DNA from: Reclinomonas americana ATCC 50394
Taxonomy: Eukaryota
Direction: 5' to 3'
Assembly (NCBI GenBank): GCA_048213135.1
Contig: PS015015.1
Coordinates: 96,925-160,924 of the forward strand
DNA: 64,000 nucleotides
Positions 13,369 to 60,634 of the stretch are shown here, one piece after another; the first letter of the stretch is position 1, and every line of letters starts with the position of its first letter. A program made the position numbers and the translations under genes. Below the pieces are notes generated by a model. The model ran no database searches. It was not told the origin of the DNA and saw only the letters and a program-made list of their open reading frames with translations.

Positions 13369-15419
13369 TTTGGGTGGCGAGGAGGAGAGGTGAGAAGGAT
13401 GTACTGAGATGTGGGCGCAATGCAGGAGGGGTACGCGCAGTGGCAAGGCGAGTGCATCCAGTGTGCAAACACGTCGGGATTCGCCCGGCTGTGGACCTTC
13501 ACCAAGATTCTCGTTTTTGTGCTGTTCATTCACGTGTTCTTCCAGATCGATGTGGGAGGAGGTTTTGTTCTTGCTTCTCTCCAGGCCAGTGCTTCTTTTT
13601 TTTTGTTACTCACACTACCACGGGTACCGGTGCAGCCTCGGCCGAAATCATCATCTTCACGCTGCAGACGGCCACGCTGCTGTTCTACCCGAATGTGGAG
13701 CTGATTTCGCTGGGCCGTCTACTCTCATTTGTCGTTCCGCGCATTGTGGATGTTGGATGCGCGTTCAACACCGATGCCGTGGGCGACATGTTGGGCCGCA
13801 TCATCTCGCCGGCAGTGTCGATGGCCACGTTGTGGGCGTGCTTTGGTGCACACTGGTTGCTTGGCAAGGCGCTGACGCACTGCGCCTACCGCGGACGGCT
13901 GCATCACAGTAGATCGGCAGGTCGGCGGTGGCAGCGGTTCATTGGCTGGTTCATGCGCACTGCGTCGCCGCATCGGTACATCATGACGAGCATTGTGCTG
14001 CTGCTTGGAGCGTACGAGGGTGTGACGGAGACAGCCATCACGTTCTTCACATGCACTGCGGTGGGCAACAGTCACGTGGTACTCTTCTCGCCGAGTATCG
14101 TGTGCTTCGAGGGAGTGTTGCGTTATCACTGCAGCTGCTGCGCTGCGCGATTGAAGAGAATTGTCATCATCAATTGTTTATCTCTCAATGCGCGCGATGC
14201 ACAATGCAGGTGGCGGCGCCTCATTCCGCTGTTTGCGGTGTTGCTGGCGGTGACGTTGAGCATTCCAGTGTTGGTGATCCTGTGGACTGCGCGACTACGG
14301 CGGCAGAAGAGACTGCAGGATGAAAAGGTGATGGCATGCATGACGACATGATTGTGAGAGGGTGTGCTGCAGTTTTTGTGTCAGCCGTGGCCGGTCTCGT
14401 TGAGATTCGTGAATCTCGTTGCACACACATGGGTGTATGCATGTGTACTGCTGTAAGCTTGCTCGTGTCTCTCACGCATCGATGTTCCGTGCTACAGACG
14501 CGACGCCGGTTCGGCGTGTTGTATCACCACTTCCGCACGCCGGTGGTTTGGTATCAAGGTGAGTCAATCATTCTGGATCCAGCGTGAGTTCAGTCTCATA
14601 TCACACACACACACACACATGTACTTTGTTGCGGTTGTCGATGTCATCAGGTTACCAGCTGTGTCGGCGGCTGGTTGTTCTCGGAGTGCTCTTCCCACTC
14701 GCTGCCACGGGATCGATCGAAGTTCTCCCCCTCGCACTGTGGCTGGTGTGTGTCGGATTCCTCGCGGTGCATCTCAGTGTGCGCGCATACGAACATCAAC
14801 TGTACAACATTCTGGAGGTGAGCAGCAGTAATGAGGTGACCGGCCATACCGATTGAGTGTTCGTCTTCTGATTCTTCTTCTTCTTCTTCCTCTTCCTCTT
14901 ATACGTGTGGCAGGCGATTGGACTCGGCTGTCTCGTTGTCATCTCCACCATATTTGCGTCGCAAGCATCGACAAACTTCAAGGTCGTTGCCAGCATCACG
15001 ATCTTGTCGGTGGTGGGTGCGGTGCTGGTTGGCCCGATGGTGCTGTTTGGCGTCCAGGCTATGGTGGCTGCCTGTCGGCGACAGCGACCGCGCAGTGGAC
15101 AGATGGGTGACGGTACGCACACCTACACATCCACACACATACATACATATATACACGCACGCGTCCTCGGGCGTGACACCCTGGTGCTTAGTAGCATTTG
15201 TTGTGCACTGTAGATGGCCGAGGTGGTGGAGCTGCTGCGCAGCCACAGGATGATGGTGGCGGCAGCGCAGCGGCGTCAATGCAACATGCATATGCGCGTG
15301 ATGACATTGCAGGCAACGCACCACTCAATGTTCCACTTCTGGCTGGCGCCGCTCGTGAAATGGATGACGGGATAGACTGGGCGGACAAGCGCACCGCAGC
15401 AGACTGGCGAGAAGTTTAA
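13369..15419 (+). CDS. Multipass membrane protein C-terminus with upstream Cys-rich segment; N-terminus lost in gap
   Basis: QEGYAQWQGECIQCANTS followed by many hydrophobic helices; TAITFFTCTAVGNSHVVLFSPSIVCFEG; RFGVLYHHFRTPVVWYQ; YQLCRRLVVL; VRAYEHQLYNILE. Layout common in protist multi-TM surface proteins. Confidence 0.7.
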
Positions 15420-28648: not shown

Positions 28649-30577
28649 TCACCGACTCATAGACGACGCCGATGAAGGCGACGACGGTGGTCGCTGGTTG
28701 GCGAGGCCGGGCGACGGTGACCGACGACCCACTGCCAACAAGAATAAGCAACAAAACAAGAAATCACAACGACAATCACCACCAACACACACCTGCGCGC
28801 ACTGGACCAGCGGGAGAAGACTGCAGCGCCAATGGCGAAGACTGCAGTGCCAACGGCGGCGGCGGCGGCGAGCTGCTTCCTCCCACTGCGCCGGCTGGCG
28901 AAGCCGACAGTGACAAACGCCCAGATGAGGAACCAGACGCACGACTGGCGGACTCGCCCGCAGCACCAGTGGAGAGTCGATCGGTCGACCGCGCAGAGCT
29001 CGAGGGAGACGAGGCGGCAGCAGCTGCCACCAAGTTTGACGGCTGTGCGGCGAAGGTACATGTGAGTGAACTCGACGAGAAGCAAGAGCACGAGTGCATC
29101 AGTCCTCACCTCGCCGGCACGCGCGGCTGCGCGGGATCGCCGCAGAGTGGCAGCGTACAACTGAACCACCGGCGCCACCTTGGCCGGATCCTTCCACAGC
29201 AGGCGAATGGCGTTGTTGCCGAGATCGGCCACGTACACCTCGGCCAGTTGCGTCACGAGAATGTCGGAGAGAGAGTTGAATTTGGCCTGCGACAAACAAC
29301 ACGGGGTGAGCACCAAGTGCGTCCCAAAGCGAGCGGCACTTGCAATACATCGCAACTTCATCGGCGGTCCCATTGACGTGACCCCAGCCCTTCTGGCCGG
29401 CAAACGTGACGACACTGGTGTAGTCGCGCGACACCTTGCGAATGCTGTTGTTCTCGCGATCCGCCACGAGGATCTCGCCACTCGGCACCACCGCCACCGC
29501 CACCGGAAAACTGAAGGCCGCCGACTCAGCGGGCCCATCGCGGAATCCCGACTTGCCCGAACCGGCCACGGTGCTCACCAGCTCCAGATCGGCCGACAGC
29601 TTGCGAATGACATGGTTGCGCGAGTCGGCCACGATGAAGCCGCCGTCCACGTCGGGTGTGATGCTTGTGGGTCTCTGTGGGTACCGCGTGAGTCAGCAAA
29701 GGAGAAAGCGAGTGTGGAATGCGTGTATGCGTGACGCACCCGGAAGAGTGAAGCCGCCGCCGGACCATTCGTGTAGCCCTCGACAGAGCCGGCAACCGTA
29801 GTCACGCGGCCCTCGGCCACCGCAATGCGCCGAACGCGATGGTTGAACTCGTCGGCCACCAGCACCGCCCCGTCTTGCGTCACACAAATATCGGAGGGCC
29901 CATCAAAGCGGGCCTCGGCCACCGACCCATCACGGAAGCCCTTCTTGCCCGAGCCAGCCAACGTGCGCGCATCGGTGCCGTCTACGTGAGAGAAGATGAG
30001 CGCGAAAAAAGAACACAAAGTTGGAGAAGAGAGAGGGCTGCGCACCGAGCTTGATCATGCGAATCCGATTGTGACCCGAGTCGCACACCAACACGTAGTC
30101 CTCGTACAAGCACATGCCCTTGGGCGCCAGCAGCACACCTCCATCCAGCAGTGTCTCCACGCGGCCCTCATCGGGAAACACTCGTCGCAACGAGTTGCTG
30201 CGCGTCTCCGACACCACCAACGATCTGCAAACACACACACACACACACACACATGTGAGCAGCGCGCAGAGGAAGACAGAGAATGTGTGTGTGCGCACCC
30301 ATCAGGCAGCTCGCAGAGGCGATTGATGCCTGAGAACTCGGCCGACGCAAAGTCCCCATCGCGCTCTCCAAAGCGACCGGAGCCGCACAGTGTGCGCACA
30401 AGGAACTCGCCTCGCCAGAAGGCATCCTTGGCGAACACAGACGCGGCCTCCGCGGAAGCTAAAGACAGAAAGATAAGAGAGAAGAGAGTGAGTGCATGAC
30501 GTGTGCGCAAGAGTGTGTGCGTGGACGCAACGAGGGCTGTTGGTGAACATGCGCTTGCCAGTAGGCGTACCAGACAT
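28649..30577 (-). CDS. NHL-repeat beta-propeller protein with a Ser/Pro-rich tail
   Basis: Repeated TLAGSGKKGFRDG..AEARFDGPSDI...VLVADEFNHRVRRI, VADSRNHVIRKL, VADRENNSIRKV, VADLGNNAIRLL. Confidence 0.88.
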
Positions 30578-35584: not shown

Positions 35585-36072
35585 ATGAAAGCAAACAAAA
35601 AACCTGTTTTCCCTCGAGCTCGTCCATCGGTGTTCGATATTTTTCTCGCGCCACACGAGCCAAGCCCGCCGCGTCGCTCCTCACACGACCCTCTCTTGCG
35701 TGTGTGTGCACGTGCCTCCCAAGTGCCCTTTGAGTGGCACACCCAATGTGGCGTCAGTTGCGTTCCACACACAGCATGACACCTTCTCTGTGTACACAAG
35801 CATCTTGCACCGGGGTTATATGCAATCATCGTGCAGAGCCTCTCTCTCACATACACTCTTACTCTCTCTCTCTCACACACACACAGTCACAGGCTTTCCT
35901 CTGCACGCACTCTCTCTTCTCTCTCTCTCTCTCTCTGCCTCCCGGTATCCTTCTCATGATCTCTGCTCTCTCCCTGTACGCGCGCCACACTCACACGCAC
36001 CGCCTTGCACTGCCTCACACTCACTGACACACCACCCGCGCACCTATGGGGACGGGGAGGGCGTGGAGAGTC

Positions 36073-39000
36073 ATGTCCACACTCACACACTCACACACAC
36101 ACGCACACAGTCGCCTGTCACGATCTGGTGCCTCGGGCGGAGGTGCAGGTGGTGGTAGTCTTGGAGGCAGTGGCACAGGTGGCGGTGGAGGAGGTGGTGG
36201 TGGCGGCTTTGGATTCGGCAACGAGTTTGGCGCCCCACTCGCCGAGGATGAGTTTGTGAGTCAGTTCATGCTGCTGGCCAGCGACGATGCCGAGAACTCG
36301 TTTGGCGCGCAACATGGTGGCACAGGCACCGGCAGCAGTCTGTCCATGTACAACTTCCAGTCGACGCCCACCATGATGGGACTGAGTGGGCCCACGGCGG
36401 CGCCCAGTAACTCGTTTCTCGGAGGTGCAGCGTCGGCCTCGGGATGGTGGATGGGAGGAGGTGGTGGTGGTGGTGGAGGTGGAGGTGGTGGTGTCGTAGG
36501 CGCCTCCTCGTTCTCGCCTGTACGTGGTGGAGGCAGCGTCGTTGGTGGCGGTGGCGGTGGTGGAACGGGGTTCAGTGGCTTCTTGGCGGGACCCAATGGT
36601 CCGTCGTCGCCTCTGATTCTGCCGGCGAGCAGTGTCGGAGCTGCCTCGCCGACGTCGGGCACCGTCACGCATCATCGGCTGCAGGGCTTCGGCAGCGGCA
36701 ATGCGATGGGCAGTGGTCCGGTGTCGCCGGCGCTGGGTGCCACAGTTGTGGCGCCGGCGCATGTGGCGGTGGCGCTGTCGTCGTTCTCGCAGGGCATCAC
36801 AGCGTCGTCGACCTTTGTGGCTGGTGGAGGCAGTCCGTTGAATACTGCGTCAGCGGCGGCACCTCTGCTCGGAGCTGGCGTCACGCGGACGAATGGCAAT
36901 GCCGCGGCTGGTGTGATTGTCCCTGCCGGCAGAGGAGTGCCAATGACAGCAGTGTTGTCGGCGGCGGTGGTGGTGGCGCCTGTAGTACCCGCCAAGTCCG
37001 TGGGTGCCGCTGCCGTGGGTGCCGGCAAGCCTGAAAAGGCGACGGCGGCCGCGGGTCGAGCAAGCGTGCCGGAGACTGCACGCAGTGACACCAGTGCACG
37101 AGCTCCGTCACCACAACAGTCGCTAACGGTGCTGTCCGGTGCCTCCTCACGACGGAGAACCAAGCAGTGCGTTTCTGCTTCCCGTGATCCCCGTGTCTCT
37201 CACTCTGCGTCTCACAATTATGCTCAGATCTGCTGCCACCTCGGTCACATCAGCGGCGGCAGGCAAACGAGGAGCAAGTGCCGCTGAACAGTCAGCAGTG
37301 ACGAGCAGCCGCAGCACTGCTGCCGCTGCGCCGTCGGCTGTGACGTGGAATTTTGCCAATGCGCAGCCGAGCTCCATTGGTGGCTCCCACTCACCGCCAT
37401 CGCATGCGGCCAACTACGCCGAGCATGCTGGTAACTTCCTTTACGGCCGCGAGGCCGATTTTCCGTCACTGGAGGCGCGCGTCAAGGGCAAGCAAAAGGA
37501 CCACAGCAACCGCACGTACGAGGAACTCGACTTGCTTCTGGCACTGGTGGAGCGTCTGCGGCCGGCGTGCTATCAGCCGAGCACTGGTGCGCCGTGTGCG
37601 TTTCTTCTTCGCTCGACTGTTGAACTAACTAACTTATCCACCCGATGGTTAGCGTGTGGCATCTACGTGGTGGAGATTCAGACGTCGCTGTGCAGCCACC
37701 CAACTCCCATCACGTTTTCGTCGGCGGAGAGTGGCACCGGCGTGTGGAAGCAAGTGCGCGGCAAGAATCCCGACATTACACGACTCAACACACTGAAGTA
37801 TTTCATCCATCGTGCACGTGTCGACGCCGACAAGGTGTGCGAGTGTGTGTGTTTGTGTCAAAAGAGTGCCTCCTTGGCACTGATTGTTGCGCAGCACGCT
37901 GCGGTGCGACGCGAGTACTACTTCCGTCGCCGACCCACCGCGGATCAAGTGCTGCTGGGTATCTGCATGGTGTATCCGCTGAACCAGAAGCGGCAGGCCA
38001 GCAAGCGCCAATCGTACGAAGGTTCGTATGGCGGGGGCGTGCAGGCGGTTGTTTCTGCAGTCACTCATNNNNNNNNNNNNNNNNNNNNNNNNNNNNNNNN
38101 NNNNNNNNNNNNNNNNNNAATGCGACTGCTCCAGCGCGACCAGCCGCACGCGCCATGCTCTCCGTACAGCAGCTCCCTGTTGTGTCACCCAGTGCCGATG
38201 ACTCGCTTTCTTCTGGGGGCGACTCTTCGCCAACTCCATTGGTCCCATTGCAACAACCACCACTAAAAGCGGAGCTGCCACAGCAAACTGCACCCCCCGC
38301 TCCTCCGCCACCACCACCTCCTGCTGCTCCGCCGATGGTCGCTGCAGCAGCAGCAGCTGCATCGATTACCTCGTCGTCGCCCACGCCGGCTTTGTTTTCT
38401 GGCGCCACGCCGGTCGCCGGCGCACTGGCAACTTCATCGCCAATACTGGCAACGCCGCCAATGTCTCTCGGGGCGGGTGCTGCGTCGCCGATGCCCTCGC
38501 CGCTCGTTCCGGTGCACACGAGCGGCACTCCGTCGATGCCCTCTGTCGCCGGTCGCATGCCCTCGCCCTACATTGGCGGTACTGCTGGTCCTGCTGCTGC
38601 CGCAGCCACACTGCCGCCGGTGCTTCAGCTTACCGATTCAATAACGCTGGCCGAGTTGCAGTACCGCAACGGCACACTGGAGTTGCCGGCGACCATGACA
38701 GGACGCGAGCAGCAGCTTGGCGAGTCTGTCGAGTTCCTGGTGGAGAATCTCGGTTCGTTCACATGCATATGCGTTTCAACCCACAGTGCTGACCGACAAA
38801 ATGTCGTCGCTGCTCGCAGGCTACCCGTGCGTCATTATGGTGACTGGCGAGCAGGGCGTGGGCAAGACTTCGTTCGCCTTCCAGCTCCTCTCCGACATTC
38901 GTACCAAGCTTGGCGTGTCCAGCCGGCCAGTTTACGTCAACATGTCGGGCCGCGATCAGCGATCCTCGCTCAAGGACGCACAGGCCATGTTCCAGATCAT

Positions 39001-42000
39001 TCACCAAGTCGACTACAAGCAGAGCTGCCGTATTGGTGCGGCATCTTTCGGCGGTCGGCTCGGCGAGGTTGGTGAAATTGATCTCCGTTTCCTTTGCTTT
39101 TTTGTTGGTCGTTGCTGACGTGTATCGCGCGCGCGCAGCATCTCCTTCACCGGCAGTACCAGTTGTGGCTCTTTGCCAGCACGCCCAGCAAGCGCCGCAT
39201 CATTGTGTTGGACAATGTGCAGACTGCCGCACAGATCGCGCGCCTCTTGCCATCCAGCTCCCATCTCAGCAGCTCGTCGACCTGTCGTGGTGCGCTCGTT
39301 TTTGCTGTTCACACTCCATGCAGTTATGTTGTTTATCATCATCGTCCGTGCGCAGAATCGTACCCGCCGCTGTTGATTGTGATTGCGGCCAATCAGTCGC
39401 TGCAGTTGAGCTGCGAGTCCCTTCATCGGTGTCACCTGCCACCGTGGACGGTGCGTGCTGCTATTAGGCCCTGTGTTCCTTCTCATTACGAGCGCTCACC
39501 AGCATGTGTGGCTCTCGTGCAGACCGAGGAGTGCAAAGTATTCCTCACGCGCTGCTTCCGCAAGGACTCCATCGACGCCCATTTCGAGGCCGTGCTCGAC
39601 GACATTGCTGTGCGCATCAACGGATCGCCTCTGTACGCGCAGTTACTTGTCGGCTACCTGAAAGAGCACATGCGAGAGAATCCGCACGGTGACGGCATTC
39701 TGGGGGCGTGGCAGGCCTTCACCGACGGCGGTGCAGAGTTGGTGCGTCATCACCCTGAGTGCTTACCATGTGCTTTCTTCGTTCCTCCTCACCACATGTG
39801 TACATGTGTAATGCATGCAGTCTGCAGACACGTGGCTTGGTCGCACGATACAACCGCTGTCGGAGGCAGCGCACAAGTTGATCTCGTGTCTGGCCACCTT
39901 TGGCGGCATTCATCCCGTGTCCACCGCCGTGCTGCAGCTGCTCATGAAGGGCGTTTTGCTGCCACGTGATGGTACGTGGACCTGCGACGCGCGCTGGTGA
40001 AGAAAAAGCTCACCGTGCTCGTAGTTGAGGCGGCACTCGCCGAATTGCTGGCTCGCAACATGGTGCACTGCTGGCACGACTTGCGTCCGAACTTTGCCCT
40101 CGTGCTCGACGGCGAGCCGGAACACGTGCTGCGGCGGTTCTCGCGCCTAGTGGCCGGCGCTTCGCGACAAAAGAGTTGCGCGACGTGCACCTGCGCTGTA
40201 GATTGCCCTGTGAACTGACTTGTGTGTGCGTGTGTGTGTGCGCTGTAGCCGACACGGTCGTCGATGCGACCATGGAGGAGAACGCGCTGGCGCTCTGCAG
40301 TCTCTCCAACATGGCAACATCGCGCTCCGAGGCCTTCCGTCGTCGCCAGCGGTTGCACTCGCTGGAGGAGGTCTGTCTTGCGCATGCAAGTGTACATGGC
40401 AAGCGAAAGCACGGATTCACTGATCTGTCAACTGCAGTTGTCTGGACCGCAGCTCAATGCGCCGGGCATCTCCAAGGAGACGCAGGCCATTCTCGGCGAC
40501 GCCTATCCGTTTGTGCAGGGTGGACACTTTTTGTTGTGGGCACTGCCGCAGCCGGTAAACGCGTATATTGTGCGCCGCGGCAACGCCGACAAGGTGTACT
40601 ACGAGAAGCGCTTTGTCGAGGTCAGTTTGTGTCGATGTGGAGAGACAGCGGTGTGTTTGCTGTTTTTTTCCCGCTCACCACGGGGAATGTGCAGATTTTC
40701 GGGCAGCTGCTGGCCGGCTACGAGTACATGTACTACGACACGGACCATGCCAACTGGGCCGCACTGGCCTTTGAGCCGTTCCGCATGTCATTCCAATTCC
40801 TGCAGTGCCTGCTGCAGGATCTGTGGGAGGAGCACTACGACACCCTCGTGCCCATCATGTCGGAAGGCTCGCTCTTCCTCATCGACCGCGTCGGCCGCAA
40901 GAAGTTCTGCAAGTGCCTCTTCAACATGTTCTCGCGGTATTTGGACGCGCATCACGACACCCTCTCCCTGTGGGATCGTGCTCGCCTGCACCAGCGCTGC
41001 GTGTACATGGCACGTCGCATCCGGCAGTACGACGAGTCGGCGCAGCGGCACGCATCACAAATGTTCGAACTGGTATCATCGTCGCCGCTCGCCGGCAAGC
41101 GACGGTACTATGAGTTCATTCACACCTACGGCAAGTACCTCATCGACCAAGGCCAGTGGGCTGCGGCCGAGGAGGCGCTGCTTGGTGAGCTGCTCACATC
41201 AAAGATAATCGTGTTTCCTTCCGTGCGACTCATGTGTGCCTTGCAATTGTGCAGCCGCACTTGAGGTGTTTGGCACCGATTTTTCGTCGCCACCGTACGT
41301 GATTGCGCGCATGGTGAACACTCTGTGCGTGTGCCAACACACTCTGGTTTGTGATGCTTTGCGGGTGAAGAATTGTTGGCAGTCGTCTCATTTTCGCTCC
41401 GCAGGGCAAGTTTGCCGATGCTCTGGCCACTGGCGACTTGCTGCTGCGCATTTGGGATCACCTGAGCAACAAGGAGCACCCGGAGTACGCTCGCGCACTC
41501 AACACGGCCGCCAACATCAAGAGCGTGCAGGGCAACCGACTGGAGGCCATCCGGCTCATCGAACGATCGCTGAACGTGTGGAACACCGTGTACGTGTGCA
41601 AGTGGATCGAGTACGCCATTGCCGAGAGCAACTTGGCGTCGGTGTTTGTCAGCGAGGGATCCTACTCCAAGGCCGAGTTTCTGTACACGTGCGTTGCCTC
41701 GTGATGTCTGTGCCTAGTCAATGTGCATTCTCCCTGACACGTTGCTGTGCACAGACGGTCACTCGGCAAATTGGAAAGCATCTACTTGGATCCGTCGCAA
41801 CCGAGCGTCGAGAATCGTGAGCTGCACGCTGCTCCGCTGCTCAAGATCGACATGACTGCCATGAACCCGGAGCTGGCACGCTGCCTCGGCAACCTGGCCC
41901 TGGTCAACGACTTTCTCGGGCACATTGAGGAGACGCAGGGGTGCGTACGCGTGTCTCCAATGACTTGCACTGGCCGCAAGCTCACCATGTCGCGTCTCTC

Positions 42001-43204
42001 GCAGTCTAATGTCGCAGGCCGTGGACTACTTCCAGTCGGCTCGGCACGATCCGTTGGTGGGACCGCAAATCATCCTAGACCTGGCAGTGGCCCTCGACAA
42101 CTCGGGTGTCGTCCTGCAGGGGCTGGGGCACTTTGAGCGCGCCATTGAGCGGCACCGGGTTTGTTGTTGTGCGCGCTTCACGGGTGCATTTTTCATTCAT
42201 TTACTCAAATGAGCATGTGTTACAGGAGGCTGCCGAGGTGCGCTCGTCACTCTACGAGGCCTCCAACATTGAGCTGTGGCCGTCGCGGACCAATCTGGCC
42301 ATTGCGTATGAGAACTGTGGACGGAATGCGGAAGGTTGGGTCCCCTTGGTGTGTGCATGTGCGTGTGCGTTTGCTCATGCGATTGCTGGGTGCAGCAATG
42401 GAGATCCACCGCGAGATGCTCGAACTGGCACGCTCATCGCCTGGCACCTTCTCGAGTCACATTGCGTCCAGTCTCACCAATTTGGCCATCTCGGTGGCGC
42501 TCGCTGGCGAACTCACGGAGGCCGAGGGTTTGCTGGTGGGTTTCCTCTTTCTGATTTGCTTTACTTGTTTGCGTGGCTGACTTTCTCTCCACGCCGCGAT
42601 GCAGCGCGAAGCCGGTGACTTGTGGCCAACGCTGCACCCGGAGCTCGGTATTGTGTGGAACAACCTCGGGCTGGTGTTGATGTACCAGGGCCGTCTGGAG
42701 GAGGCCGCGAACTACCTCAACAAATCCCTGCAGCTGCTGGAGATGCACCGCCGCGGCGACAACCCTGTGTGTCTGCTGGTGCGCAACAACATTGGTGTGC
42801 TGACCGAGTCCAGTCCGGTTCCGCAAGACGCACTGTACGTGTACGCCCACGCGGCACGCATGCGCCCCGTGCACCCCTGCTACCCGTTCGTGACCTTCAA
42901 CACGGCACGCGTGCTGTCGCTCTCTAACCGAGAGCAGGCCGCTGCGCTGTTCCGCAAGGTGTGTGTGATTGTGATTGTGAATGTGCGGGAGTGTGAGGCG
43001 CGTCTCACGCAGTGGAGCGCGCAGTGTCACGAGCAGGTGACGGTGGTGGATCCGTGGGCCGGGCAAAGCGCCGAGTTGCAGGAGTTGCGCCAGCAGCACG
43101 ACTGGCTGGCCATGGCGGACCGAGTAAGCGAGCTGTCGCCGCAAGCCGTGTTCTTGCACGCGTACGCTCGATGTGTGCACCGCAATGCGTGGAACACTTA
43201 CTGA
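36073..43204 (+). CDS. NLR-like STAND P-loop NTPase with C-terminal TPRs, low-complexity N-terminus and an unrecognised globular domain
   Basis: Walker A VTGEQGVGKTS (~38840); Walker B RIIVLDNV (~39200); GxP motif INGSPLYAQL (~39620); TPRs HPEYARALNTAANI...EAIRLIERSL and HPELGIVWNNLGLVLMYQGRLEEAANYLNKSL. One gap at 38069-38118. Confidence 0.78.
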
Positions 43205-43317: not shown

Positions 43318-44469
43318 TCACAACCCAAACAATTCCTCGTCCAGACCCTTCACCGTCGCCTGCGCCGACCGTGACGCCGGCTTATCATCCTCACGCTTGG
43401 TGGCCTTGCCCGCCGGCTTCTTCTTCTTCTTCTTGTCCTCGTCGAGATCCATCGTGCCGGCCTCGACACCCATGGCCGCCTCGAACTTATTGGCAGTCTT
43501 CATCTCCTTCTTTGCGGGATTGGCAAACATGGCATCCAGCGCATCTCGCTGCTGCCGCGTCTGGTACGTCGAAATGTCATCAGCAACATCATCAGCAGCC
43601 ACCACCACCGCGCCATCACCGTCGACAGCCGTGACCGCACTCGCACTCAGTCTCAGCGTCGACAGTTGCTCGCTCGGTGGTGCCACAGCCACCGCCGCCG
43701 CTGTTGCTGTTGTCGTCGTCGTCGTAGTTGTCGTCGTCGATGATGAGGTCGCAGTGGCGCCACCGCCAGCCCGGGAGCCACCAAACAGCGAGTCATGTGT
43801 GTCGGCAAAGAAGTCTGACGCATTACGCTGCGCCGACTGCGGCTGTGGTGGAGGCGGTGGCTGCGGTGCAGCGGTGGCACTTGTCGCCGACGACGCATCT
43901 CCCGACGCCGCCAACAGCGCCTCCGCCTCTCTCCGCTCCTGCGCACTGATGACCACACCATCCAACTCCAGCAGCGTCGGCATCCGCGCAATCACAAACG
44001 CCCGGTAGTTGCGCTCGGTCTTGGCGAACGGACAACCCTCCAGCCACAAGGACTCCACCGCCGGAAACGTAAACAACCCTGCATGCACAACCACAGTGGA
44101 TGAGTCATGGATGACGCGAACGAGGAGAAAGCAAGAGCACGAAACCTTGCAGTTGCCGCGCAAAGCGAAACGTGTTGCCACTGAGATCCAGGCGACGCAC
44201 ACGCAAGCACTTGCTGAAATCACCCAAATCTGATCATCACGCACAGTCATCACTCTTGCACACACACACATACACCACTCTCTTCACTCACCATCAATGC
44301 TGCCTTTGGTGATCGACAGCTCCTCCACCTCTGCCACATTCACCATCTGTCACACACGCACAACAAGAGAGCGTGAGTGTGTGACGCAAACACTCACAGA
44401 CAAGAGCACACATAAGCAACAAACCCGATTCAGCTTCGCCGGCAGCTTCTCCACAGTCAACTTGGGCAT
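43318..44469 (-). CDS. Short SDS22/U2A'-type LRR protein with LRRcap
   Basis: MPKLTVEKL; VRRLDLSGN; VESLWLEGCPF...NYRAFVIARMPTLLELDGVVISAQER. Confidence 0.8.
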
Positions 44470-44567: not shown

Positions 44568-47500
44568 ATGCGCTCGGCACCACGTGTGCATTCCAAAGTT
44601 TCGCCCACTCTTCTCTCATGCCCAACTCTCTCTCACACACTCACACACACGCGCGTTCACAGGATGCAGAGGCGGAATCTGCATCGCCCTCGACGCTCTC
44701 CTTTGTGCTCTTTCTCGTGTGCATTGTGTGCGTGTGTGTGGCCGTGTGGAGCTTCGAGCATCCACTGTGGTCACTGCCGACTCCGGTCTCTGGCAAGGAG
44801 TGCCCGGCGGAGAGCGCCACGTGTTTCTCAGAGGAGCGCGCTCGTCGACACACGCAGTATCTCACAGAGACCATTGGCATTCGTTGCGCATCTGCATCTC
44901 TTGCGCGCCTCTCTCTTTTCTTTGTTTTTTTTGTTGTTCATTCTTTTGTTTCCCCTGTGGCACTGCGTAGGACTGACGGGCACTGATGAGAATGAGATTG
45001 TTAGTGCGGGGTACCTGCTTAACGAATTCGAGGCGTTGCAGGTCGGTCGGGCTGTCGGTGTTTCTCCGCATTGTGTCTCTGTCTCTTATCGCTCGTGTGT
45101 GTGTGTTGGCGATGCAGGAGACTGCCAGCGAGAAGCTGACGGTGGAGGTGGAGCAGCAGTTCACCTCGGGCAATTTCTCCATGAGTTGCGCACGTTTGCA
45201 TGCAGGCTGTATGTTATAACAACAACGCATTCACTGGGTGTCCGCCAGACTTTTTGCAGCACGACTTGGCGCTGGTGTACTCGAATGTCACCAACATTCT
45301 CATGCGTGTGCGGGCGCGTAGTGATGCGGAGCCGGAGCATTGCGTCGTGGTCGGCACGCACTTTGATTCGACGATTTCCAGTCCCGGTTTGCTCACGATC
45401 CTCCTTGGTGGTGCTCGTGACCGCCACCCCCACATGCGCGCTTACTGGCATGTGTGTGATGCAGGTGGTTCCGATTGTGGCACGCCAGTGGGTATCGCGG
45501 TGGAAATGGCACGCGCGCTGACTCGTCCGGGTGCGGAGAAGTACTTTTCGCCGGGTGGCGAGAACTGCGTCGTGTTTGTGCTGAATGGCAGCGAGGAATT
45601 CGGACTGCTGGCCGCACACGGTTTCCTGAGCCATCCGTGGGCCGAGCGGTGAATGGCTTTTCCTCTCAGCTGCTTGGTTATCTTGCTCTCACAATCCTAC
45701 AGCTCCTCGTTCATCGTCAACATGGAGGCCGTCGGTGCCGGCAGCAAGGAAGGTACGTCTGTCGTCCGTCGCTTTGGCGCACTGGTGTGCCTCGCTTAAA
45801 CACGCTGCTGCACGCGCACAGTCTTCTTCCAGACCGCCCCCGGCAACCGCCACTTTGTGGAGACGTACTCTGAGTACGTGAAGCGTCCGCATGGCACAGT
45901 GCTGGTCCGTCGTCGTTGTTGTTGTTGTTGCCGTCGCTTGCAGTTTTGTGTGCCTTCTGAGTCGCTTTGCGTGCTTTCGATAGGGCGAGGATTTGTTCCA
46001 GCGGCTGCAAGTCATTCCCAGGTGCGTGTTGCAATGGGCGACGGCGTTGCGTACATGTATCATTGTTCTTAACTGCATCGTGTAGCGACACCGATTTCCG
46101 CATCTACCGCGATTTCGGCGGCATGCGTGGCTACGATTTTGCCGTGTACCGCAACAGGTGCGTGATGCTTTCATGTGGCGGCGACTTGCACTTCCATTCA
46201 CCACCACACGCGCACAGCCAAGTGTACCACACCGAAAAGGATAACATGGAGATGATCACACCCGGCACCATTCAGCACTACGGCGAGAACGTGTTTGCCG
46301 TGACCCGCGGCATCTTGGCCAACTACAAGAAGCTGGTGCAGAGGCATTGTCTCTTGTTGTTCTCTTGTCTTTCCAGGCGTTGTTGCTTACGTTGTCGCAG
46401 ACGGAGACGGACGTGGAGGATGTCGCATACTTTGATGTTCTGAGCACGTACATGATGTGGGTGCCGTCATGTTGCGTGGCTGCTTGTTTATCAGCAGAGG
46501 CTCTCTCTCTCTCTCTCTGTCGCTGACACGTCAGTCTTTCCATCAGCCGTTCTCCGCCTGATCCAAGTCTCCACATTCGTCATTACACTGCTGTTGCTGG
46601 TGATCTTCTCACGCAACAAGCGTGGTGGCAACACCATTTTCCAGGACGCGTTGGTCGACACGGTGAGTGCGTTGTTGCAGTGTACACTCATGGTGACGAT
46701 CACTGAATGTGTGTGCGTGTGTGTTTGCAGGGAGTGCTGATCCTCGCCGTGCTGTTCGCCGTCATTTTCAACGTCTGCGTGGCGCTCTTCGTGACACGTG
46801 TCATTGGAAGCCGCCTCTCGTTCTACTCGAACGGATTGCTCGGTGGTTTGCTGTACGGCAGCGGTGCACTGTTTGGCTTCTTCCTGGCCATTCGTTTCAA
46901 GGTTTGGCAGTCGGGGGTGTCGTGAAAGAAAAGAGTGTGAGCGACTGACGGCGACTCACGCAGACGGTGGTTGCGGTGCTGGCTGGACTCATTGTCGCCA
47001 TGTTGCAATATGTGCTGGTGCTGCGCGTCGCGTGGCGCATCGGCTCGCCGGAGGAAGTCGACGACATTACGTGGGTGTCGAACTTGGTGCCGTCGCCGAC
47101 AATGTTGTACGGCGCGGCAGTGGTGATGGCCTCTGTGTCGCTGATTGTCGTGCCGTGGATGGGCGTGCGTCAGTTGCGTGATATGCGATAATGATCGCAT
47201 GTGGGAGTAACGTACCAACATTCGCGTTCAGCTTCGCGCACCGTCGTCGGACAGCCAAGGAGGCACCATCGCCGTTGACTCAGCGTCTGGCATTCGGATT
47301 CAGCGTCCAGTTCCTGACACTGCTTATCATGGCGGCACTGGCCGCTGGTCCGTCACGATTTGTGTGTGCATGTGGTGATCGACTTCTGTCTCACAGTTTT
47401 CGCACAGGCGGTCTCGGTTTCACGTATCTGTTCACCATTGTGAGCATTGCTGGTGTGCTGTCCCTCGTGCTGGAGCTGCTGGGCAACGGTATCGTGCCCA

Positions 47501-53245: not shown

Positions 53246-56200
53246 TTACGACAGGCGAGCCGGGTTCACCGGCGGCACCACCACTGGCCGCGCTTGCCCT
53301 GCGTAGTAGTTGTTGACCGCCATTCGCTCTGCACAGGAAGAAAGCATAAGAACACAATCGCTTCCCACGCCGGCAAATGCGGAACGCAACGACGGCAGGT
53401 GTGCAGCTGCTGCTGCAAATCGGCCACTGGCGTGGGCTTCTTCCAGTTAGCAGGTGGCCGCGTGCCGTTCAGCAGCGAGTAGTACCAGCGGAGGAGGGCC
53501 ATCCGACGGGCCGTGTCGAGGCACTTGGTCCGCGTGGGTCGTGGCGCTGGGGCCGGTGCTGGCTGCGCATACTGAGGCATGTAGTATGGCGACGGCTGCG
53601 GGTAGTATCCGTACGGCATTGGCGGCGCCGGGGCTTGGTAGGTCGGTGGTGGTGGCGGCGGCGGTGCAGGTGTGTAGTACTGTGGCGTGGGGGCGTAGTA
53701 GTACGGCAGTGGCACAGACTGCGGTGCTGGAGCTGGGGCAGGAGCAGGCTGTGCGTACTGCTGGTGCGACGGCACGTTGCAATGGTACGGAGCCGCAGGC
53801 TGCGGCTGCTGCTGCGGCTGTGGTGGCGGTGCTCGGCGACGGCGAGGAGCCGGCGGAGCGTACATTGGCGGAGGGTACGAGACATCGCATCCTTGCGCTG
53901 GCGCTTGCGCTGGTGGTGGCGGAGGCAGTGCATAGCGGCGACGGCGAGGAGGCGCAGAAATGGGGTTCTCCGACACATCGCAGCCACCCATGTCACCAGC
54001 CGCCGGGGGTGGCGGTGGCGGTGGTGGGCGTGCATAGTACGGATCCGGGATCATGCGTCGGCGAGGTGGTGGCGGTGGAGCCGCAGCAGCAGCAGCAGCA
54101 TCTTGCTCCTGCGCCTCTTCGGCATCATTGACAGCGGCAGAAGCCGCAGATCGCGGTCGCGCATAGTACGGGTCGGGGACGATGCGGCGACCGCCTCGGC
54201 GCCACGCACCATAAGTCGGAGCGGGACCATCGGCAGCGGACGGAGCTGCCGCAGCGTCGTCGTCGGCATCTGCACCGTCGCGAGACAGGAGGCGGCGGCC
54301 ACGTGCACGACGCGGCATCACAGCACCCTCCTCGTCCTCTTGTGGAGCACGAGCGGCTTCGGCTGCGGGCGGCGCAGCTTGTGCGGCGGGCTCCTCATAG
54401 TCGTTCTCCTCTGCAATCAAATGTAAGTGGCGGTTCGCAGAAGTGATAACCAACTCAGCAAGTGACCTTCAACAAGAGCCGCTGCAGGTCCACGAAGGCG
54501 CGAGGTCGGCGACGCGGCAAAAGCTGCTGTCGGCACGGCCAGTTGGGCGGCGGCACCAGCAGCCACTGCACATTTACGTCAGCACGAGAGACAAGGAAGA
54601 TGGATCACAGTATGGGGAACATACCGTTGCGGCTGCGCTGCGGTGCCAGTGCGACAATGCACTTCTCCACAGTGTTGATGCGACGAGCCAGTCGTGCCTG
54701 GGCAATGTGGCACACTGCGCGTGCACGCAACGACCGGGGCGCACGAGGGCACGCGTGGGCGGCGACATTGCGCAGCTTCTTCACCACCACCAGTGCTTGA
54801 CGGCAACGGCCGCGGTCGATAGTCTCAACTGCGCACACAGATCGTCAGCAACACTGCAGCTCGTGCAACACAACAACACTCGTCGTCAATCCTCACCGTC
54901 GTCATCGTCGTCGACGTTTTGGTTGCGGCGCTTCTGACGGCGTGGTGCGCTGTCATTGTCGTTGATTTCGCTGCGGCGTCTGCGACGGCGAGGCGCGCTG
55001 TCATCGTCGTCGTTGACACTGCGGCGCTGGCGACGACGGGGTGCACTGTCATCGCCGTCCAAGTCTGCGACAAAGGGGAAACAGAGTGGGCACACCACAC
55101 ACTTTCATCACCGGCTGTTGACAGTGCTTACCATTCTTGCTGGGGCGGCGACGGCTAGCAGACCGTCGCTTGCGGCCACCTGTGAGTATAGCAATGAGTG
55201 CAAGCGCCCTCTCATTGTCACATGCAAATTCAGTGCATGTCGCGCACCACCATCGCGGCGGCGGCTTGGACGACGACCACCGTCCTCCTCGTCGTCGAGG
55301 TCGTCAGCACGACGAGTTGGCTTGCGGGGCTTGTCTTCGCTCTCCTCGTCAGCATCGTCACCTTGACGACGACGGCGGCGGCGGCGGCGATCGCCCTTCA
55401 AGTCGTCCTCATCATCTGCGCCCGCAAAAGGGAACACCACTTGAGTGCCACTGCAAGTACTCTTGCTGACCATTTTCGAATTCATACGCATACCATTGCG
55501 GGCAGCAGCACGACGACCACCTCGGCGGCGCAGGGTGGGCTGTCGGCGACGACGCAGCGGACCATCGTCGTCAGCATTGGCGTCACCGCCAGCATCTGTG
55601 CATGTGGTGAGTCACAACTCACACATTGATTTACAAAAGTGGTCATGGCTGTACGCACTCTTCCTGCGCTTGCGGCCGACAACAGCAGCATCATCGTCAT
55701 CAATGTCAATGTCATCAGCGACGCGAGAACGCCGGCTGTCACCTGCAGCATCGACACGTAAACAACGGAGGCGGTGCCACTGAAACAGAAGTCCACATCA
55801 ACCGTACCCTTGCGAGAACGCGGTGCAGCACGGTCGTCGTCCTCGTCAGTGGCTTCCGGAATGGCGCGCATCACTGTCAACATGACGATGATGGAATGAG
55901 TGCCCAAGTGCTAACAAGCACACATGGAGTGAGTGTGGTGAGGTGAACGCACTTCGTCGGAACTTGCGCGCGTCACGACGAATCACGTGCCGGAGGTACT
56001 CGCTGGTGGCTGTGCAAATGTGATACGATGAGCGCAGAACACGAAGGATCCAAAGGCAGCTCAAATAAACAAACCACCACGGATACGCTTGTCTTCACGA
56101 TCTGTTTGTGTGAAAGAGTGAGTGTGGGATTGACTGAGTGGCAACAGTGCACGGGAATGAGACTCACCAGAGCCGCGGTCGTCAGAGTCAGCGCCATCGT

Positions 56201-57225
56201 CTGCATGTGGAGAAAAGATATCAAACAAACCAGTCAGTTGTCGCTCAATACCTCGGTGAGGAATACGCTTCACTCCCATCACCATTGCGCGACGGCGGCG
56301 GCGACGACTCTCGCAAGCGACGCACTGCAGAGGCAGGAAGACATGTCAACAGGGGGATCAGCAACTACGCACGACTCAAACCACACGCGCAACTGTTCTT
56401 CTTGATGCGACTGACAATGGCGCGGCACCCTGCAAACATCATAGAGTGAGACAGTGGTGGGACGAAGTGATGGTGACACCATGATGTGAAAGAACTTTGC
56501 TTGTGGATGGGTTCCGGATCGGCCTGTGACGGGTCCACTGCACAGAGAGAAAGTAAACAACACTGCAACACACAACCATGGAAGTGGCAGTGGAGGTGAG
56601 AAAACAGTACGAAACAGCTGGCATCGAAACCGGGCAGACGGCGAACACGGTAGTCACGGAAGGTGCGACCGTCTGCCACCAGTGTCGAAAAACAGTCAGC
56701 AAACTGTCCAAGAGGCACTGCTTCTCTTCCCACACCCACCATTGTCTGCATCGTACTCGCGGTTGCTGAGTCGGGAAGCTCGCTTGCACGAGCGATTGGT
56801 CGGCGGCCGCGGAACTGCACAAATGACAACGATGACCACACAAGTACAGCAATGTATGCGAGTAAGCATTTTGGTACACACTGTCATCGGCAATAGTGCG
56901 ACGACGGCACATGCGCGGTGCGCCAGACGGCGGTGGGGGTGGCAGCGACGGCAGAGCAGCAGGACCACGACGACGGCGGCAACTCTGTGGCGGCGGCGAC
57001 GCTGGAGTCTCCCACGGCGCCGGAGCTGCATTCTTTGCTTGCGGTCGGTAACCTGTGTCCACACCCCACCATGTGAGTCGACAAAGAGACCGCAGTCGCA
57101 CAGACACCACAACACAGACCCTCCCAAGGATCACCGCTAGCAGGGCGCTTGAAGGCATCGGGCGCTGCGCACACCAGACCGCAATGAGACAACACAACAA
57201 AGACTGCGATCGCGACATGCTGCAT
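53246..57225 (-). CDS. Large secreted precursor-like protein with poly-Arg/Asp-rich repeats and a Pro/Tyr-rich C-terminal region (about 19 exons)
   Basis: Signal peptide MQHVAIAVFVVLSHCGLVCA at 57225. A continuous reading frame can be spliced through GT-AG introns to NPARLS*. No family recognised. Confidence 0.7.
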
Positions 57226-57297
57226 CCACGGCTCACCCCTCGTTGCTTTCACCACTGCGTGCGTTCAGCAGCAGCCCGTCAGTCAAACAAAGCCACA

Positions 57298-57865
57298 ATN
57301 NNNNNNNNNNNNNNNNNNNNNNNNNNNNNNNNNNNNNNNNNNNNNNNNNNNNNNNNNNNNNNNNNNNNNNNNNNNNNNNNNNNNNNNNNNNNNNNNNNNN
57401 NNNNNNNNNNNNNNNNNNNNNNNNNNNNNNNNNNNNNNNNNNNNNNNNNNNNNNNNNNNNNNNNNNNNNNNNNNNNNNNNNNNNNNNNNNNNNNNNNNNN
57501 NNNNNNNNNNNNNNNNNNNNNNNNNNNNNNNNNNNNNNNNNNNNNNNNNNNNNNNNNNNNNNNNNNNNNNNNNNNNNNNNNNNNNNNNNNNNNNNNNNNN
57601 NNNNNNNNNNNNNNNNNNNNNNNNNNNNNCCGCGCGTCGGCACTTTGAGTCGCTGCGGCAGCGCCAGGAGCGTCGTCGTGCCGAGCGTGAGGAGCGTCTA
57701 CGCAACCGCCAATATGCGGACGACGCGGAGGATGTCAGTGCTGCTCCTCCGCGCGATGACACTGATGCCCCGCGAGCTCGTGGACCCAGTGTGAACAAGC
57801 AGCTGCGCTGGCTCGGCAAGCTTCTGCGCGGCTACCCGCCGGCTGGTGGCGATGCACGACCATGA
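57298..57865 (+). CDS. Small Arg/Asp-rich hypothetical protein, mostly hidden in a gap
   Basis: 'acaat' abuts the gap (likely ATG). After the gap the frame reads ARRHFESLRQRQERRRAEREERLRNRQYADDAEDVSAAPPRDDTDAPRAR...GDARP*. Confidence 0.5.
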
Positions 57866-58012
57866 GCACCTACATCCTATTCTATCTTGTATCAACTTCC
57901 TCCCTTTGTGTTTTTTTCATTGACATGCACAATGAACGCGTGATGAGTCATCAGATATCCGCGCGCCGCGAGCACATAAATATCTCAGTCACTTTCAACA
58001 CACGACGCACAC

Positions 58013-60634
58013 ATGAGGCCACAGCTGGTGCTGTTGGCGCTGCTTGTGGCGGTGCTCCTCTGTGTGAGCGCTGCGGTTGCTGTGTCTGCGCAGCAGGAGG
58101 ACGAGGTGGAGGGAGTGGAGGAGAACTTTATGCTGGTGTCGCAAGTTTCGTCCGTCTGCGCGTCTCTCTCTCTCTCTCTGTGCACACTCTAACACACACA
58201 CATACGTAGAGCGACCATGCAAGTCAGAGTGCTGATGCGGAGGATGCCATGAATGGTGCGCGTGTGTTGTGTGTTGTCTGCTCTGCTACTCTCTTCTCAT
58301 TCCAAGCCGCCACCAGAGGCCGAGTCCGATGAGGAAGACGAGTGGCTGGACGATGGTGTGTGCACATATACACACGTACGCGCAAGTGCACCACTGTCTC
58401 CTCACTCACTGNNNNNNNNNNNNNNNNNNNNNNNNNNNNNNNNNNNNNNNNNNNNNNNNNNNNNNNNNNNNNNNNNNNNNNNNNNNNNNNNNNNNNNNNN
58501 NNNNNNNNNNNNNNNNNNNNNNNNNNNNNNNNNNNNNNNNNNNNNNNNNNNNNNNNNNNNNNNNNNNNNNNNNNNNNNNNNNNNNNNNNNNNNNNNNNNN
58601 NNNNNNNNNNNNNNNNNNNNNNNNNNNNNNNNNNNNNNNNNNNNNNNNNNNNNNNNNNNNNNNNNNNNNNNNNNNNNNNNNNNNNNNNNNNNNNNNNNNN
58701 NNNNNNNNNNNNNNNNNNNNNNNNNNNNNNNNNNNNNNNNNNNNNNNNNNNNNNNNNNNNNNNNNNNNNNNNNNNNNNNNNNNNNNNNNNNNNNNNNNNN
58801 NNNNNNNNNNNNNNNNNNNNNNNNNNNNNNNNNNNNNNNNNNNNNNNNNNNNNNNNNNNNNNNNNNNNNNNNNNNNNNNNNNNNNNNNNNNNNNNNNNNN
58901 NNNNNNNNNNNNNNNNNNNNNNNNNNNNNNNNNNNNNNNNNNNNNNNNNNNNNNNNNNNNNNNNNNNNNNNNNNNNNNNNNNNNNNNNNNNNNNNNNNNN
59001 NNNNNNNNNNNNNNNNNNNNNNNNNNNNNNNNNNNNNNNNNNNNNNNNNNNNNNNNNNNNNNNNNNNNNNNNNNNNNNNNNNNNNNNNNNNNNNNNNNNN
59101 NNNNNNNNNNNNNNNNNNNNNNNNNNNNNNNNNNNNNNNNNNNNNNNNGCCGCCGTCCGCGGAGAAGGTGGATGCGGCGAGTCGACGAGCGAATCGGGAG
59201 GCGCAGGCGATTGCAAAGCAGATTTTGCAGGTGCCGCGTCGTGCGGCGTCGTCGTTGCAGGCGACGGTCGATGCCGCGTTGCGGAATGCTGATGGTGACG
59301 CGGCGGACCGCATTCGTCGGTTGGCAAGCCGCGCGATTGGCTGCTTGCGCTCGTCGACGCGCACCAGCTGGGACGCGTGGCTCGAGCTGGCGGAGGTGGA
59401 CTCGGCTCGTCGCGGGGGCAGTAGCCGTTCCGTCCGCTCCAAGGCGCCTTCCAGCACCAGGAGCTTCAGCAACAGCAACAGTGGGAAGAGAAGCAGCAAC
59501 AGCAGCAGTAGCAAGAGGAACAGCAACAGCAGCCGTGGCGGTCGCAGCAGCAATGCCTCGAACGGCTCGGTCAACACGGTCAACAGTACGCTGCAGACGC
59601 TGAAGCAGCTGGTGGCACAAGCGGAGCGGGCCCCGAAGAACTCGGCCTTGGCACGCCTGGCCAACAAACTGCGACTGGCGGCGAGGACAGTCGGCCGCGA
59701 GGTCCGCACCTCCATGGTCGGCGTGTCGCCGTCGCGATTGCTGAATCTGGCGACCTCCAACGTCAAGGACTTGTCGCTGCAAGCCATGAACAATCCCGAC
59801 GTGACGCGCAATGTGCGACGCCAGGTCTACAACTCGCAGCAGAGCGTGCAGGCGCGCCTGACCAATTGCCGCGAGAACGTCGACGAAGTGCTGCGTGAGC
59901 TGAAACGCCTGAAGCAGGACTCCCAGCCGGAAGATGACGACGCAGCGGCGGATCCACAGCCGGCTGACGATGGCGATGACGACAACGACAATAACAACGA
60001 CGACGGCTCCGACGACGACCAGCAGCCGGCGCAGCAGCAACAAGAGCGACGACGCCGCCGCCGACGAAACAGTGCACCGATCGACGAGAGCGAGCCGGAG
60101 AAGGATCGCGAGCCAGTGGACGACAGTGGCGACGACGGCGACAGCGACGGTGGCGATTCTCCGCGTTTGCGTGGCCCGCCGTCACAGCGTCGCGGCAAGC
60201 GCAGCCGCAGCAGTGGCAGCAAGCGCAGCCGTGGCAGTGGCAGTGGCAGCATGCGCAGCCGTGGTGGCAGCAAGCGTCGCAGTGGTGGTGGCAAGCGCAG
60301 CCGCCGAAGCCGTGGACGCTCCTCGGCCTCCAGGAGCCGCCGCGGGCAGGTCAACCGACCCAGCGACCGCCTGTTGGGCACGCTGTGGCGTCTCCGCAAG
60401 AAGGTGGCGTACGCCGGTCGCAAACTCGAACGCTGCGCGCAGCGCAATTGGGCCTATCGCGGCACTCGCGGTGCCGGTGGCGATCGGAGAGGCCGTGGTG
60501 ACGGACAGCCTCGCTTTCCTCGCGCTGCGTCGTGGTTCGGCGCACCGCGGTACGATGGTCACCGCGAGGTGGAGTGGGAGCCGGGTCACCGTTGCGTCGC
60601 ACCAACACCGAGCAGAGAGGGAGAGCGAGAGTGA
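58013..60634 (+). CDS. Large secreted protein with acidic, Ser/Arg/Gly-rich and Cys-bearing helical blocks; gap inside
   Basis: Signal peptide MRPQLVLLALLVAVLLCVSAAVAVSA then acidic QQEDEVEGVEE; ~1.5 kb open frame after the gap. Joining across the gap is assumed. Confidence 0.65.

Follow-up and report, generated by a model that had tools for sequence, protein, structure and literature searches.

Plants, animals, fungi and bacteria commonly use proteins of the STAND class, the NLR-like ones among them, as intracellular sensors, whose function is set by the N-terminal module; on the STANDs of protists and fungi, N-terminal domains without annotation are common. Their switch cycle runs from a repeat sensor through nucleotide exchange to multimerization. 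The sections we drew on of two papers (PMC3879445, PMC4053784) document STAND proteins with tetratricopeptide (TPR), ankyrin (ANK) or WD40 repeats across protists and animals, including NB-ARC-TPR proteins of Acanthamoeba and Ectocarpus and NACHT-TPR proteins of holozoans and other protists, in which an N-terminal module, a P-loop nucleotide-binding oligomerization domain (NOD) and C-terminal TPR_12/TPR_10 repeats follow one another. The same order is found in the gene described here. It lies on the forward strand of a stretch of 64,000 nucleotides from Reclinomonas americana ATCC 50394 (assembly GCA_048213135.1, contig PS015015.1, positions 96,925 to 160,924), which we call the window and whose first letter is position 1.

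The gene encodes, in order, a Gly/Ala/Ser-rich N-terminus, a basic domain (the N-domain), a Pro/Ala-rich linker, a STAND-like P-loop NTPase and kinesin-light-chain-type TPRs. This order is conserved in one distant orthologue, P0002, and constraint is strongest on the N-domain. As in the described eukaryotic STAND-TPR proteins, the gene product has Walker A, apparently followed by an hhhhD[DN] motif, a GxP-like motif and a region that is helical and resembles a winged helix. It differs from them in three respects: its NOD scores below the NB-ARC and NACHT cut-offs of Pfam, its N-domain falls outside the described families, and this domain is internal, with a disordered linker of 107 to more than 200 residues between it and the NOD.

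Gene model, distant relative and assembly gap

We searched the N-domain, read through with its introns included, against 1.84 billion representative proteins with phmmer and obtained four matches at E ≤ 0.001. The sole true relative among them is P0002 (1615 aa, E = 6e-18), the single member of its cluster, which occupies one open frame of 1615 aa on one 6456-nt contig of the Logan assemblies. An unbroken frame of 4.8 kb in a relative of a 19-intron gene suggests that this contig is transcript-derived. Comparing the spliced window protein with P0002 by blastp gave three colinear blocks, namely the N-domain (40% identity, E = 2e-30), the NTPase (24%, E = 1e-15, P0002 residues 432–777) and the helical arm with the TPRs (25%, E = 2e-61, P0002 residues 900–1607). 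N-domain, NTPase and TPRs are thus arranged in P0002 as in the window, in one frame.

Further relatives were sought widely. Word-indexed searches of 5.8 billion protein clusters, made with P0002 residues 150–310, with a two-sequence profile and with P0002 residues 420–1000, returned P0002 only. None of 420 pattern matches in metagenome contigs was confirmed as a related locus. When the invariant G[IL]CMVYP[IL]N was searched for as a degenerate DNA pattern, metagenomes gave two matches, prokaryote genomes one and viruses none, and all three are chance matches with dissimilar flanks. By tblastn, no part of the gene is duplicated elsewhere in the window.

The other three phmmer matches, P0001, P0003 and P0004, were rejected as relatives. 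They are long repeat proteins in which one short query segment is matched over and over, in single high-scoring segment pairs of at most 33.5 bits; at E ≤ 10 the P0002 domain matched neither P0001 nor P0003, and P0004 only at E ≥ 0.13. Because the single pairs are weak and the P0002 domain does not match, we regard these hits as chance matches summed over repeats. P0001 (4029 aa) is intermediate-filament-like, with about 20 repeats of about 115 aa, each weakly similar to the final pair of strand-like segments in the window N-domain (YxFRxxP...VLxIxMxY); with the P0002 domain non-matching, the resemblance was judged to be chance.

The window is eukaryotic DNA with a G+C content of about 58% and nine runs of N. 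Between 36028 and 43204, open reading frames (ORFs) taken from stop to stop on the forward strand switch frame every few hundred bases because of short GT-AG introns, and together they form a single eukaryotic gene at about 36046–43204 with at least 19 such introns. The 19 measure 53–79 nt (mean 66); the donor is GTGCGT in 6 of them, the end is CAG in 16, and three lie upstream of the assembly gap and 16 downstream. The spliced reading is free of stops for 615 aa from the ATG at 36046 to the gap and for 1335 aa from 38119 to the TGA, giving a predicted protein of at least 1950 aa. The 16-intron model downstream of the gap was obtained by dynamic programming and then refined by hand.

Upstream of the gap, the intron that ends the Gly-rich exon was chosen among many stop-free junctions (length = 1 mod 3) for its donor, which is the commonest one, its CAG acceptor and its typical length. 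An earlier reading of the window, made from the letters and their ORFs (the sequence-only reading), had started the gene at 37400; by joining the Gly-rich exon to the N-domain exon, this intron moves the start at least 1.4 kb further upstream. The ATGs at 36046 and 36073 are candidate starts, and the 5' end of the gene is placed only approximately. A CA-rich tract at 36070–36110 could be untranslated region or intron. CA/GT-rich, microsatellite-like tracts occur at 36060–36110, just past the first ATG, and at 40205–40245, inside an intron of the arm.

The G+C content at third codon positions (GC3) is 0.72–0.84 in most globular exons, 0.61 in the Gly-rich region (36110–37166) and 0.59 in the Pro-rich region (38119–38752) of the same gene. 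Because GC3 is low in these two regions, we call them coding on the strength of their open frames and of splice joins that keep the frame. Their amino acid compositions (Table 1) are those of the Gly-rich and Pro-rich flanks that the sequence-only reading had described. Much of the Pro-rich stretch is open in all three frames.

The assembly gap, a run of N exactly where the sequence-only reading had it, falls within the low-complexity linker, 20 codons past the point where the conserved domain stops. Coding runs in frame 2 up to the gap and in frame 1 beyond it, and therefore a gap of exactly 50 nt would break the frame. Two neighboring genes, one for an N-domain protein and one for an NTPase-TPR protein, would result if a stop codon, intergenic DNA and another start codon were hidden in the gap. 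The frame difference across a gap whose length is not fixed, the in-frame ATGs that follow it (frame 1, about 38155; frame 2, 38801) and the low GC3 of the linker would suit such an arrangement, which we nonetheless consider very unlikely. The coding frames hold no stop codon from the domain to the gap or from the gap to the NTPase. The pre-Walker helix GREQQLGESVEFLVENL, which aligns with P0002, is encoded upstream of ATG 38801, so the open frame of the NTPase extends into the linker exon; a 67-nt intron splices this exon in frame to the P-loop exon, and from its end into the NTPase, window residues 189 onward align with P0002 residues 432 onward. Finally, P0002, in which a low-complexity linker of about 107–117 aa separates the N-domain from the NTPase, carries both parts in its unbroken frame of 1615 aa. 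Because it does so, the gap most likely lies within one gene, and we hold continuity across it with high confidence, as judged by comparison with this orthologue. The sequence-only reading had placed the N-domain, the STAND module and the TPRs in one protein and had named a gap between two genes as grounds for abandoning that view; the single frame of P0002 favors the former and makes the latter unlikely.

Table 1. Coordinates of the gene and its parts in the window
Feature	Position	Strand	Description
First recognizable coding exon	36046..37166	+	Gly/Ala/Ser-rich, low-complexity, ~374 aa; G 21%, A 17%, S 15%; within open frame-1 ORF 36028-37287
Intron	37167..37227	+	61 nt, GTGCGT...CAG; joins Gly-rich exon (frame 1) to N-domain exon (frame 2)
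Conserved N-domain	37433..38008	+	~153 aa spliced, NFLYGRE to NQKRQASKR; exons 37228-37595, 37653-37834, 37895-38068
In-frame introns inside N-domain	37596-37652, 37835-37894	+	57 nt and 60 nt; the second reads as a 20-aa insertion without P0002 counterpart
Assembly gap	38069..38118	.	50 N (nominal length)
Pro/Ala/Ser-rich linker exon	38119..38752	+	P 21%, A 19%; ends in pre-Walker helix TGREQQLGESVEFLVENL; frame 1 open from the gap
STAND-like nucleotide-binding module and helical, winged-helix-like region	38683..40090	+	Seven exons
NTPase-module introns	38753-38819, 39068-39138, 39290-39355, 39451-39522, 39742-39820, 39972-40024	+	Stop-free spliced model
Helical arm, then kinesin-light-chain-type TPRs	40091..43201	+	Continues the exon starting at 40025; ten introns
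Arm and TPR introns	40175-40248, 40371-40437, 40621-40694, 41185-41254, 41347-41404, 41689-41754, 41941-42004, 42159-42225, 42335-42395, 42536-42604	+	
Stop codon TGA	43202..43204	+	From sequence and spliced translation

N-domain, NTPase and TPRs

Residues 158–315 of P0002 recover the window at 37433–38005 by tblastn (E = 4e-24), and in a global alignment of the two N-domains 64 of 150 positions are identical (43%). At 40–43% identity, against 24–25% for the remainder, the N-domain is the best-conserved part of the protein and, on this ground, its most constrained part; being so across two very distant orthologues, it probably carries an activity. The strings by which the sequence-only reading had marked the domain (ELDLLLALVERLRP, GVWKQVRGK, LKYFIHRAR, VRREYYFRRRP, ICMVY and KRQASKR) are all present and exonic, in frame 2 of 37400–38068. 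Its globular domain of about 140 aa proved to be conserved, as the match to P0002 attests, but its extent had to be redrawn, since two in-frame introns had been read as protein.

The leading conserved motif of the N-domain is N[FY]LxGRExxFP[ST]L[DE]ARVKGxxKDxxN[KR]TYEE. Both copies are basic, with an isoelectric point of 9.69 in the window and 9.15 in P0002 and with 25 and 23 Lys and Arg residues, respectively, and thirteen Lys/Arg, three Cys and one His are invariant between them. Basic clusters flank the domain in both proteins (RRRTK and KRQASKR in the window; RRKK, KRKESK, RKRER and RKR in P0002). It begins between 155 aa (P0002) and about 440 aa (window) from the N-terminus and is preceded by low-complexity sequence, rich in G/A/S in the window and in Q/S/P in P0002. 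The basic isoelectric point, the conserved Lys/Arg and the flanking clusters are compatible with nucleic-acid binding, but they are unspecific.

Comparisons with known families and folds returned little for this domain. Neither N-domain matched a Pfam family at E ≤ 10, with CG-1 (PF03859), NAM/NAC (PF02365), WRKY, GCM, FLYWCH and FAR1 included in the scan, and P0002 scanned whole gave no family over its N-domain at that threshold; HMMER filters discard most matches above E ~0.1, and a very remote kinship within Pfam could escape such scans. NCBIfam and PADLOC gave nothing for the read-through domain of the window, and all their matches to the whole of P0002 fell outside its N-domain. Searched against all sequences of the PDB, a two-sequence profile gave one match, at chance level (E = 0.92). 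As a yardstick for WRKY-GCM1 folds we used the zinc-ligand pattern C-x4-7-C ... H-x-H/C on a four-strand sheet. No paired ligands of this kind are conserved: the invariant residues are C69, C81, H120 and C153 of the alignment, with 11, 38 and 32 residues between them, and CxxC, HxH and HxC pairs and the WRKY-type spacing are absent among the residues conserved in both N-domains. The resemblance to CG-1, NAC or WRKY-GCM1 families put forward in the sequence-only reading is thus not borne out by either the Pfam scans or the ligand spacing.

Structure prediction was similarly uncertain. AlphaFold2, run on the two-sequence alignment of the N-domain, returned a predicted local distance difference test score (pLDDT) of 41 and a predicted TM score (pTM) of 0.33, with no confident fold, and the chain fold given by ESMFold2 was likewise uncertain. 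The low-confidence model contains four or five predicted strand-like hydrophobic segments. Neighbors of the N-domain in the ESM Atlas scored at most 0.83, a level that shuffled proteins also reach, and none belonged to the proposed DNA-binding families. Ubiquitin-like families (Rad60-SLD, ubiquitin, TDP-43_N, GRHL1_C) recurred among the low rows of the Atlas, at noise level, and are mentioned as a lead only. We propose that the N-domain represents a family without annotation and with two members, apparently new as judged from the sequence databases and without a name by which the literature could be searched.

In the NTPase, Walker A (GEQGVGKTS, 38846–38872) aligns with GDDGAGKTA of P0002, and the GxxGxGK[ST] signature is intact in both. 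The GSPL motif at 39622–39633, within INGSPLYAQLL, corresponds to FKGNLLHSLVF in P0002, without the Pro. Common to both proteins is a layout of a GR[ED] helix, G-x-x-G-x-GKT, YVNM, VLD[ND]V and a helical region with W...LS...L. Pfam models matched the P-loop exon of the window below threshold, and all of them are of STAND or AAA type (AAA_16, E = 1.7e-4; nSTAND3, E = 2e-3; NACHT, E = 9.6e-3); in P0002, AAA_25, nSTAND3 and NACHT appeared at E = 0.015–0.11. The cut-off of NACHT (PF05729) was not reached by the window (16.2 bits against 26.7) or by P0002 (E = 0.11), NB-ARC (PF00931) was not among the matches, and NCBIfam and PADLOC gave only chance-level matches to the NTPase. The STAND label is therefore given because of the motif order shared by the orthologues, the helical region that follows and the NOD-arm-TPR architecture, and not because of a family hidden Markov model (HMM). 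The Walker motifs, GSPL and TPRs named by the sequence-only reading are all in place, and its assignment of a STAND NTPase is kept on motifs and architecture, with Pfam scores that stay sub-threshold.

The TPRs are the part most readily recognized. TPR_12 exceeds its Pfam cut-off of 30.1 bits in two exons of the window, at about 41489–41689 and 42650–42865, with scores of 48.9 bits (E = 7.7e-13) and 35.4 bits (E = 1.2e-8), and in P0002 it reaches 121 bits over nine stretches. Against PDB sequences, the TPRs of P0002 match kinesin light chain 1 (E = 2e-16). They also match the Nephrocystin-3 TPR model at E = 1e-10, a sub-threshold score (41.7 bits against a cut-off of 100).

A candidate switch and its alternatives

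The reading that we prefer, and that we think rather more probable than its competitors taken together, is that of an NLR-like STAND switch in three parts, whose output domain is new and acts at the protein level. The C-terminal TPR array would serve as a sensor and as an autoinhibitory domain that keeps the NOD closed, the divergent P-loop module would be the switch, operating through nucleotide binding and oligomerization, and the basic N-domain, held between two long disordered linkers, would be the output module. A ligand binding to the repeats would lift autoinhibition and permit exchange of ADP for ATP, after which the protein would multimerize, cluster its N-domains and trigger the output. 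By analogy with other eukaryotic STANDs, this output would be recruitment or enzymatic signaling and would not take place on DNA. The switch mechanism is likewise modeled on STANDs that have been studied, and a STAND activation model with a TPR sensor is set out in the portion of PMC6468293 that we used.

A number of observations weigh against this reading. The family has two known members, the window gene and P0002; the continuity of the gene across the gap is deduced from the latter; and our searches assign neither a fold nor an activity to the N-domain, the supposed output module. In neither orthologue does any NTPase family HMM reach its curated cut-off. AlphaFold2 modeled the NTPase module with a pLDDT of 46, the GxP/winged-helix part lying mostly below 50, and Foldseek found nothing for this model at E ≤ 1e-3, its best match being to RFC at 1.5e-3; among its weak rows, the NB-ARC of NRC1 (TM 0.27), Apaf-1 (TM 0.28), NRC2 and CED-4 stand beside RFC and ORC. 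VIA recovered only generic alpha/beta folds for the NTPase (Z ≤ 6.8). In Walker B of the window (IIVLDN, 39199–39216), Asn at 39214–39216 replaces the second acidic residue, where P0002 has LVLDD, and the sensor-1 region reads LLIVIAAN, with Asn at 39391–39393, where P0002 has VVILTSR. Provided that the exon model is correct, the NTPase of the window may bind nucleotide but hydrolyze it poorly or not at all, and a non-hydrolyzing NTPase may fit a scaffold as well as a switch.

Such a scaffold, of the NPHP3/TTC41 kind, would have a degenerate NTPase, TPRs that dock partners and an N-domain serving as a protein-interaction module, and would neither sense a ligand nor oligomerize on induction. 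Besides the acidic residue and the sensor-1 Arg that the window copy lacks, the low identity of the NTPase between the orthologues and the sub-threshold match of the P0002 repeats to Nephrocystin-3 would agree with it. However, P0002 keeps the canonical LVLDD and TSR, and Walker A is intact in both proteins. The NPHP3/TEP1/NWD group is, moreover, defined by a TeTIR, a module of 200–350 aa directly upstream of NACHT (bioRxiv 10.64898/2026.09.21.753143), and here about 35 ordered residues precede Walker A. We therefore rate a non-switching scaffold as unlikely.

The idea that the N-domain binds DNA, be it of the CG-1, NAC or WRKY-GCM1 type or of a new one, and that multimerization activates transcription as in the bacterial STANDs MalT and AfsR, draws on the basic character of the domain in both orthologues with its thirteen invariant Lys/Arg, on the basic clusters around it and on the low-complexity regions in front of it, which resemble those of many activators. 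Set against these features are the results reported above, namely the lack of any Pfam family at E ≤ 10 for either N-domain, also when P0002 was scanned whole, the empty search of PDB sequences, conserved Cys and His without paired ligands or WRKY-type spacing, and ESM Atlas neighbors at noise level, none of the proposed kinds. In addition, a limited literature search, resting on parts of the sources, turned up no eukaryotic STAND with a DNA-binding output. A sensor-transcription factor of this sort seems improbable to us. We are equally doubtful of the variant in which the N-domain has a novel eukaryotic fold that binds DNA or RNA: the TPRs would take up a ligand in the cytosol or nucleus, the NOD would multimerize in response, and several N-domains would thereby be placed on a promoter, with the Q- or G-rich N-terminus as activation region. 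The family and PDB searches and the fold predictions neither support nor exclude a DNA-binding role, which stays a prior guess, and the protein-level switch is the reading that we carry forward.

Neighborhood and comparison with known systems

On the reverse strand, a 321-codon open frame at 43321–44283, with a long Thr/Ala-rich run and no Pfam match at E ≤ 1e-4, ends 116 nt past the stop of the gene, so that the two are apparently convergent and very closely spaced. Farther away lie two exon-sized ORFs, one on the reverse strand with an NHL repeat (29102–29692; PF01436, E = 2.8e-12) and one on the forward strand with a Peptidase_M28 match (45961–46440; E = 1.3e-5). Sub-windows of low G+C at 12001–14000 and 56001–60000 (0.36–0.48) overlap runs of N at 12662–13368, 57300–57629 and 58412–59148; because they coincide with these long runs, their low G+C is probably an artefact of the gaps and not a sign of AT-rich DNA.

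With the TEP1/NWD/TTC41/NPHP3 group, in which a TeTIR and a NACHT are followed by WD40 repeats or TPRs, the gene product has in common a STAND ATPase and, C-terminally, TPRs. Nothing of the TeTIR kind abuts its NOD: the domain of about 153 aa lies more than 200 aa upstream. By size and position, the features compared here, the N-domain is not a TeTIR as defined.

The CG-1 domain of CAMTA factors is of similar size to the N-domain, but the Pfam CG-1 model was not among the matches at E ≤ 10. The order in the CG-1 consensus runs from a helix through strands with a W-K/R cluster, an aromatic-His strand and an RR-x-aromatic strand to a hydrophobic V/M-x-Y strand. The order of elements in the N-domain resembles this consensus by eye, and we offer the likeness as a lead, not as evidence.

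The logic proposed in the sequence-only reading, with sensor repeats, a NOD and an output in one chain, is that of MalT and AfsR, whose DNA-binding domains are a LuxR-type helix-turn-helix and a SARP domain. In contrast to these, neither the window protein nor P0002 matches a DNA-binding family; the Walker B exon of the window matches the AfsR model at E = 0.024, which is chance level. If it were true that the N-domain binds DNA, the gene would encode the first eukaryotic STAND to regulate transcription directly, a counterpart of MalT and AfsR. For specialists, the gene is a useful catalogue entry and no surprise, and the activity of the N-domain, once worked out, would give the NLR repertoire of microbial eukaryotes one more type of effector. 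Compared with the systems described so far, the STAND-TPR design is already known, the NOD is an outlier and the N-domain is apparently new.

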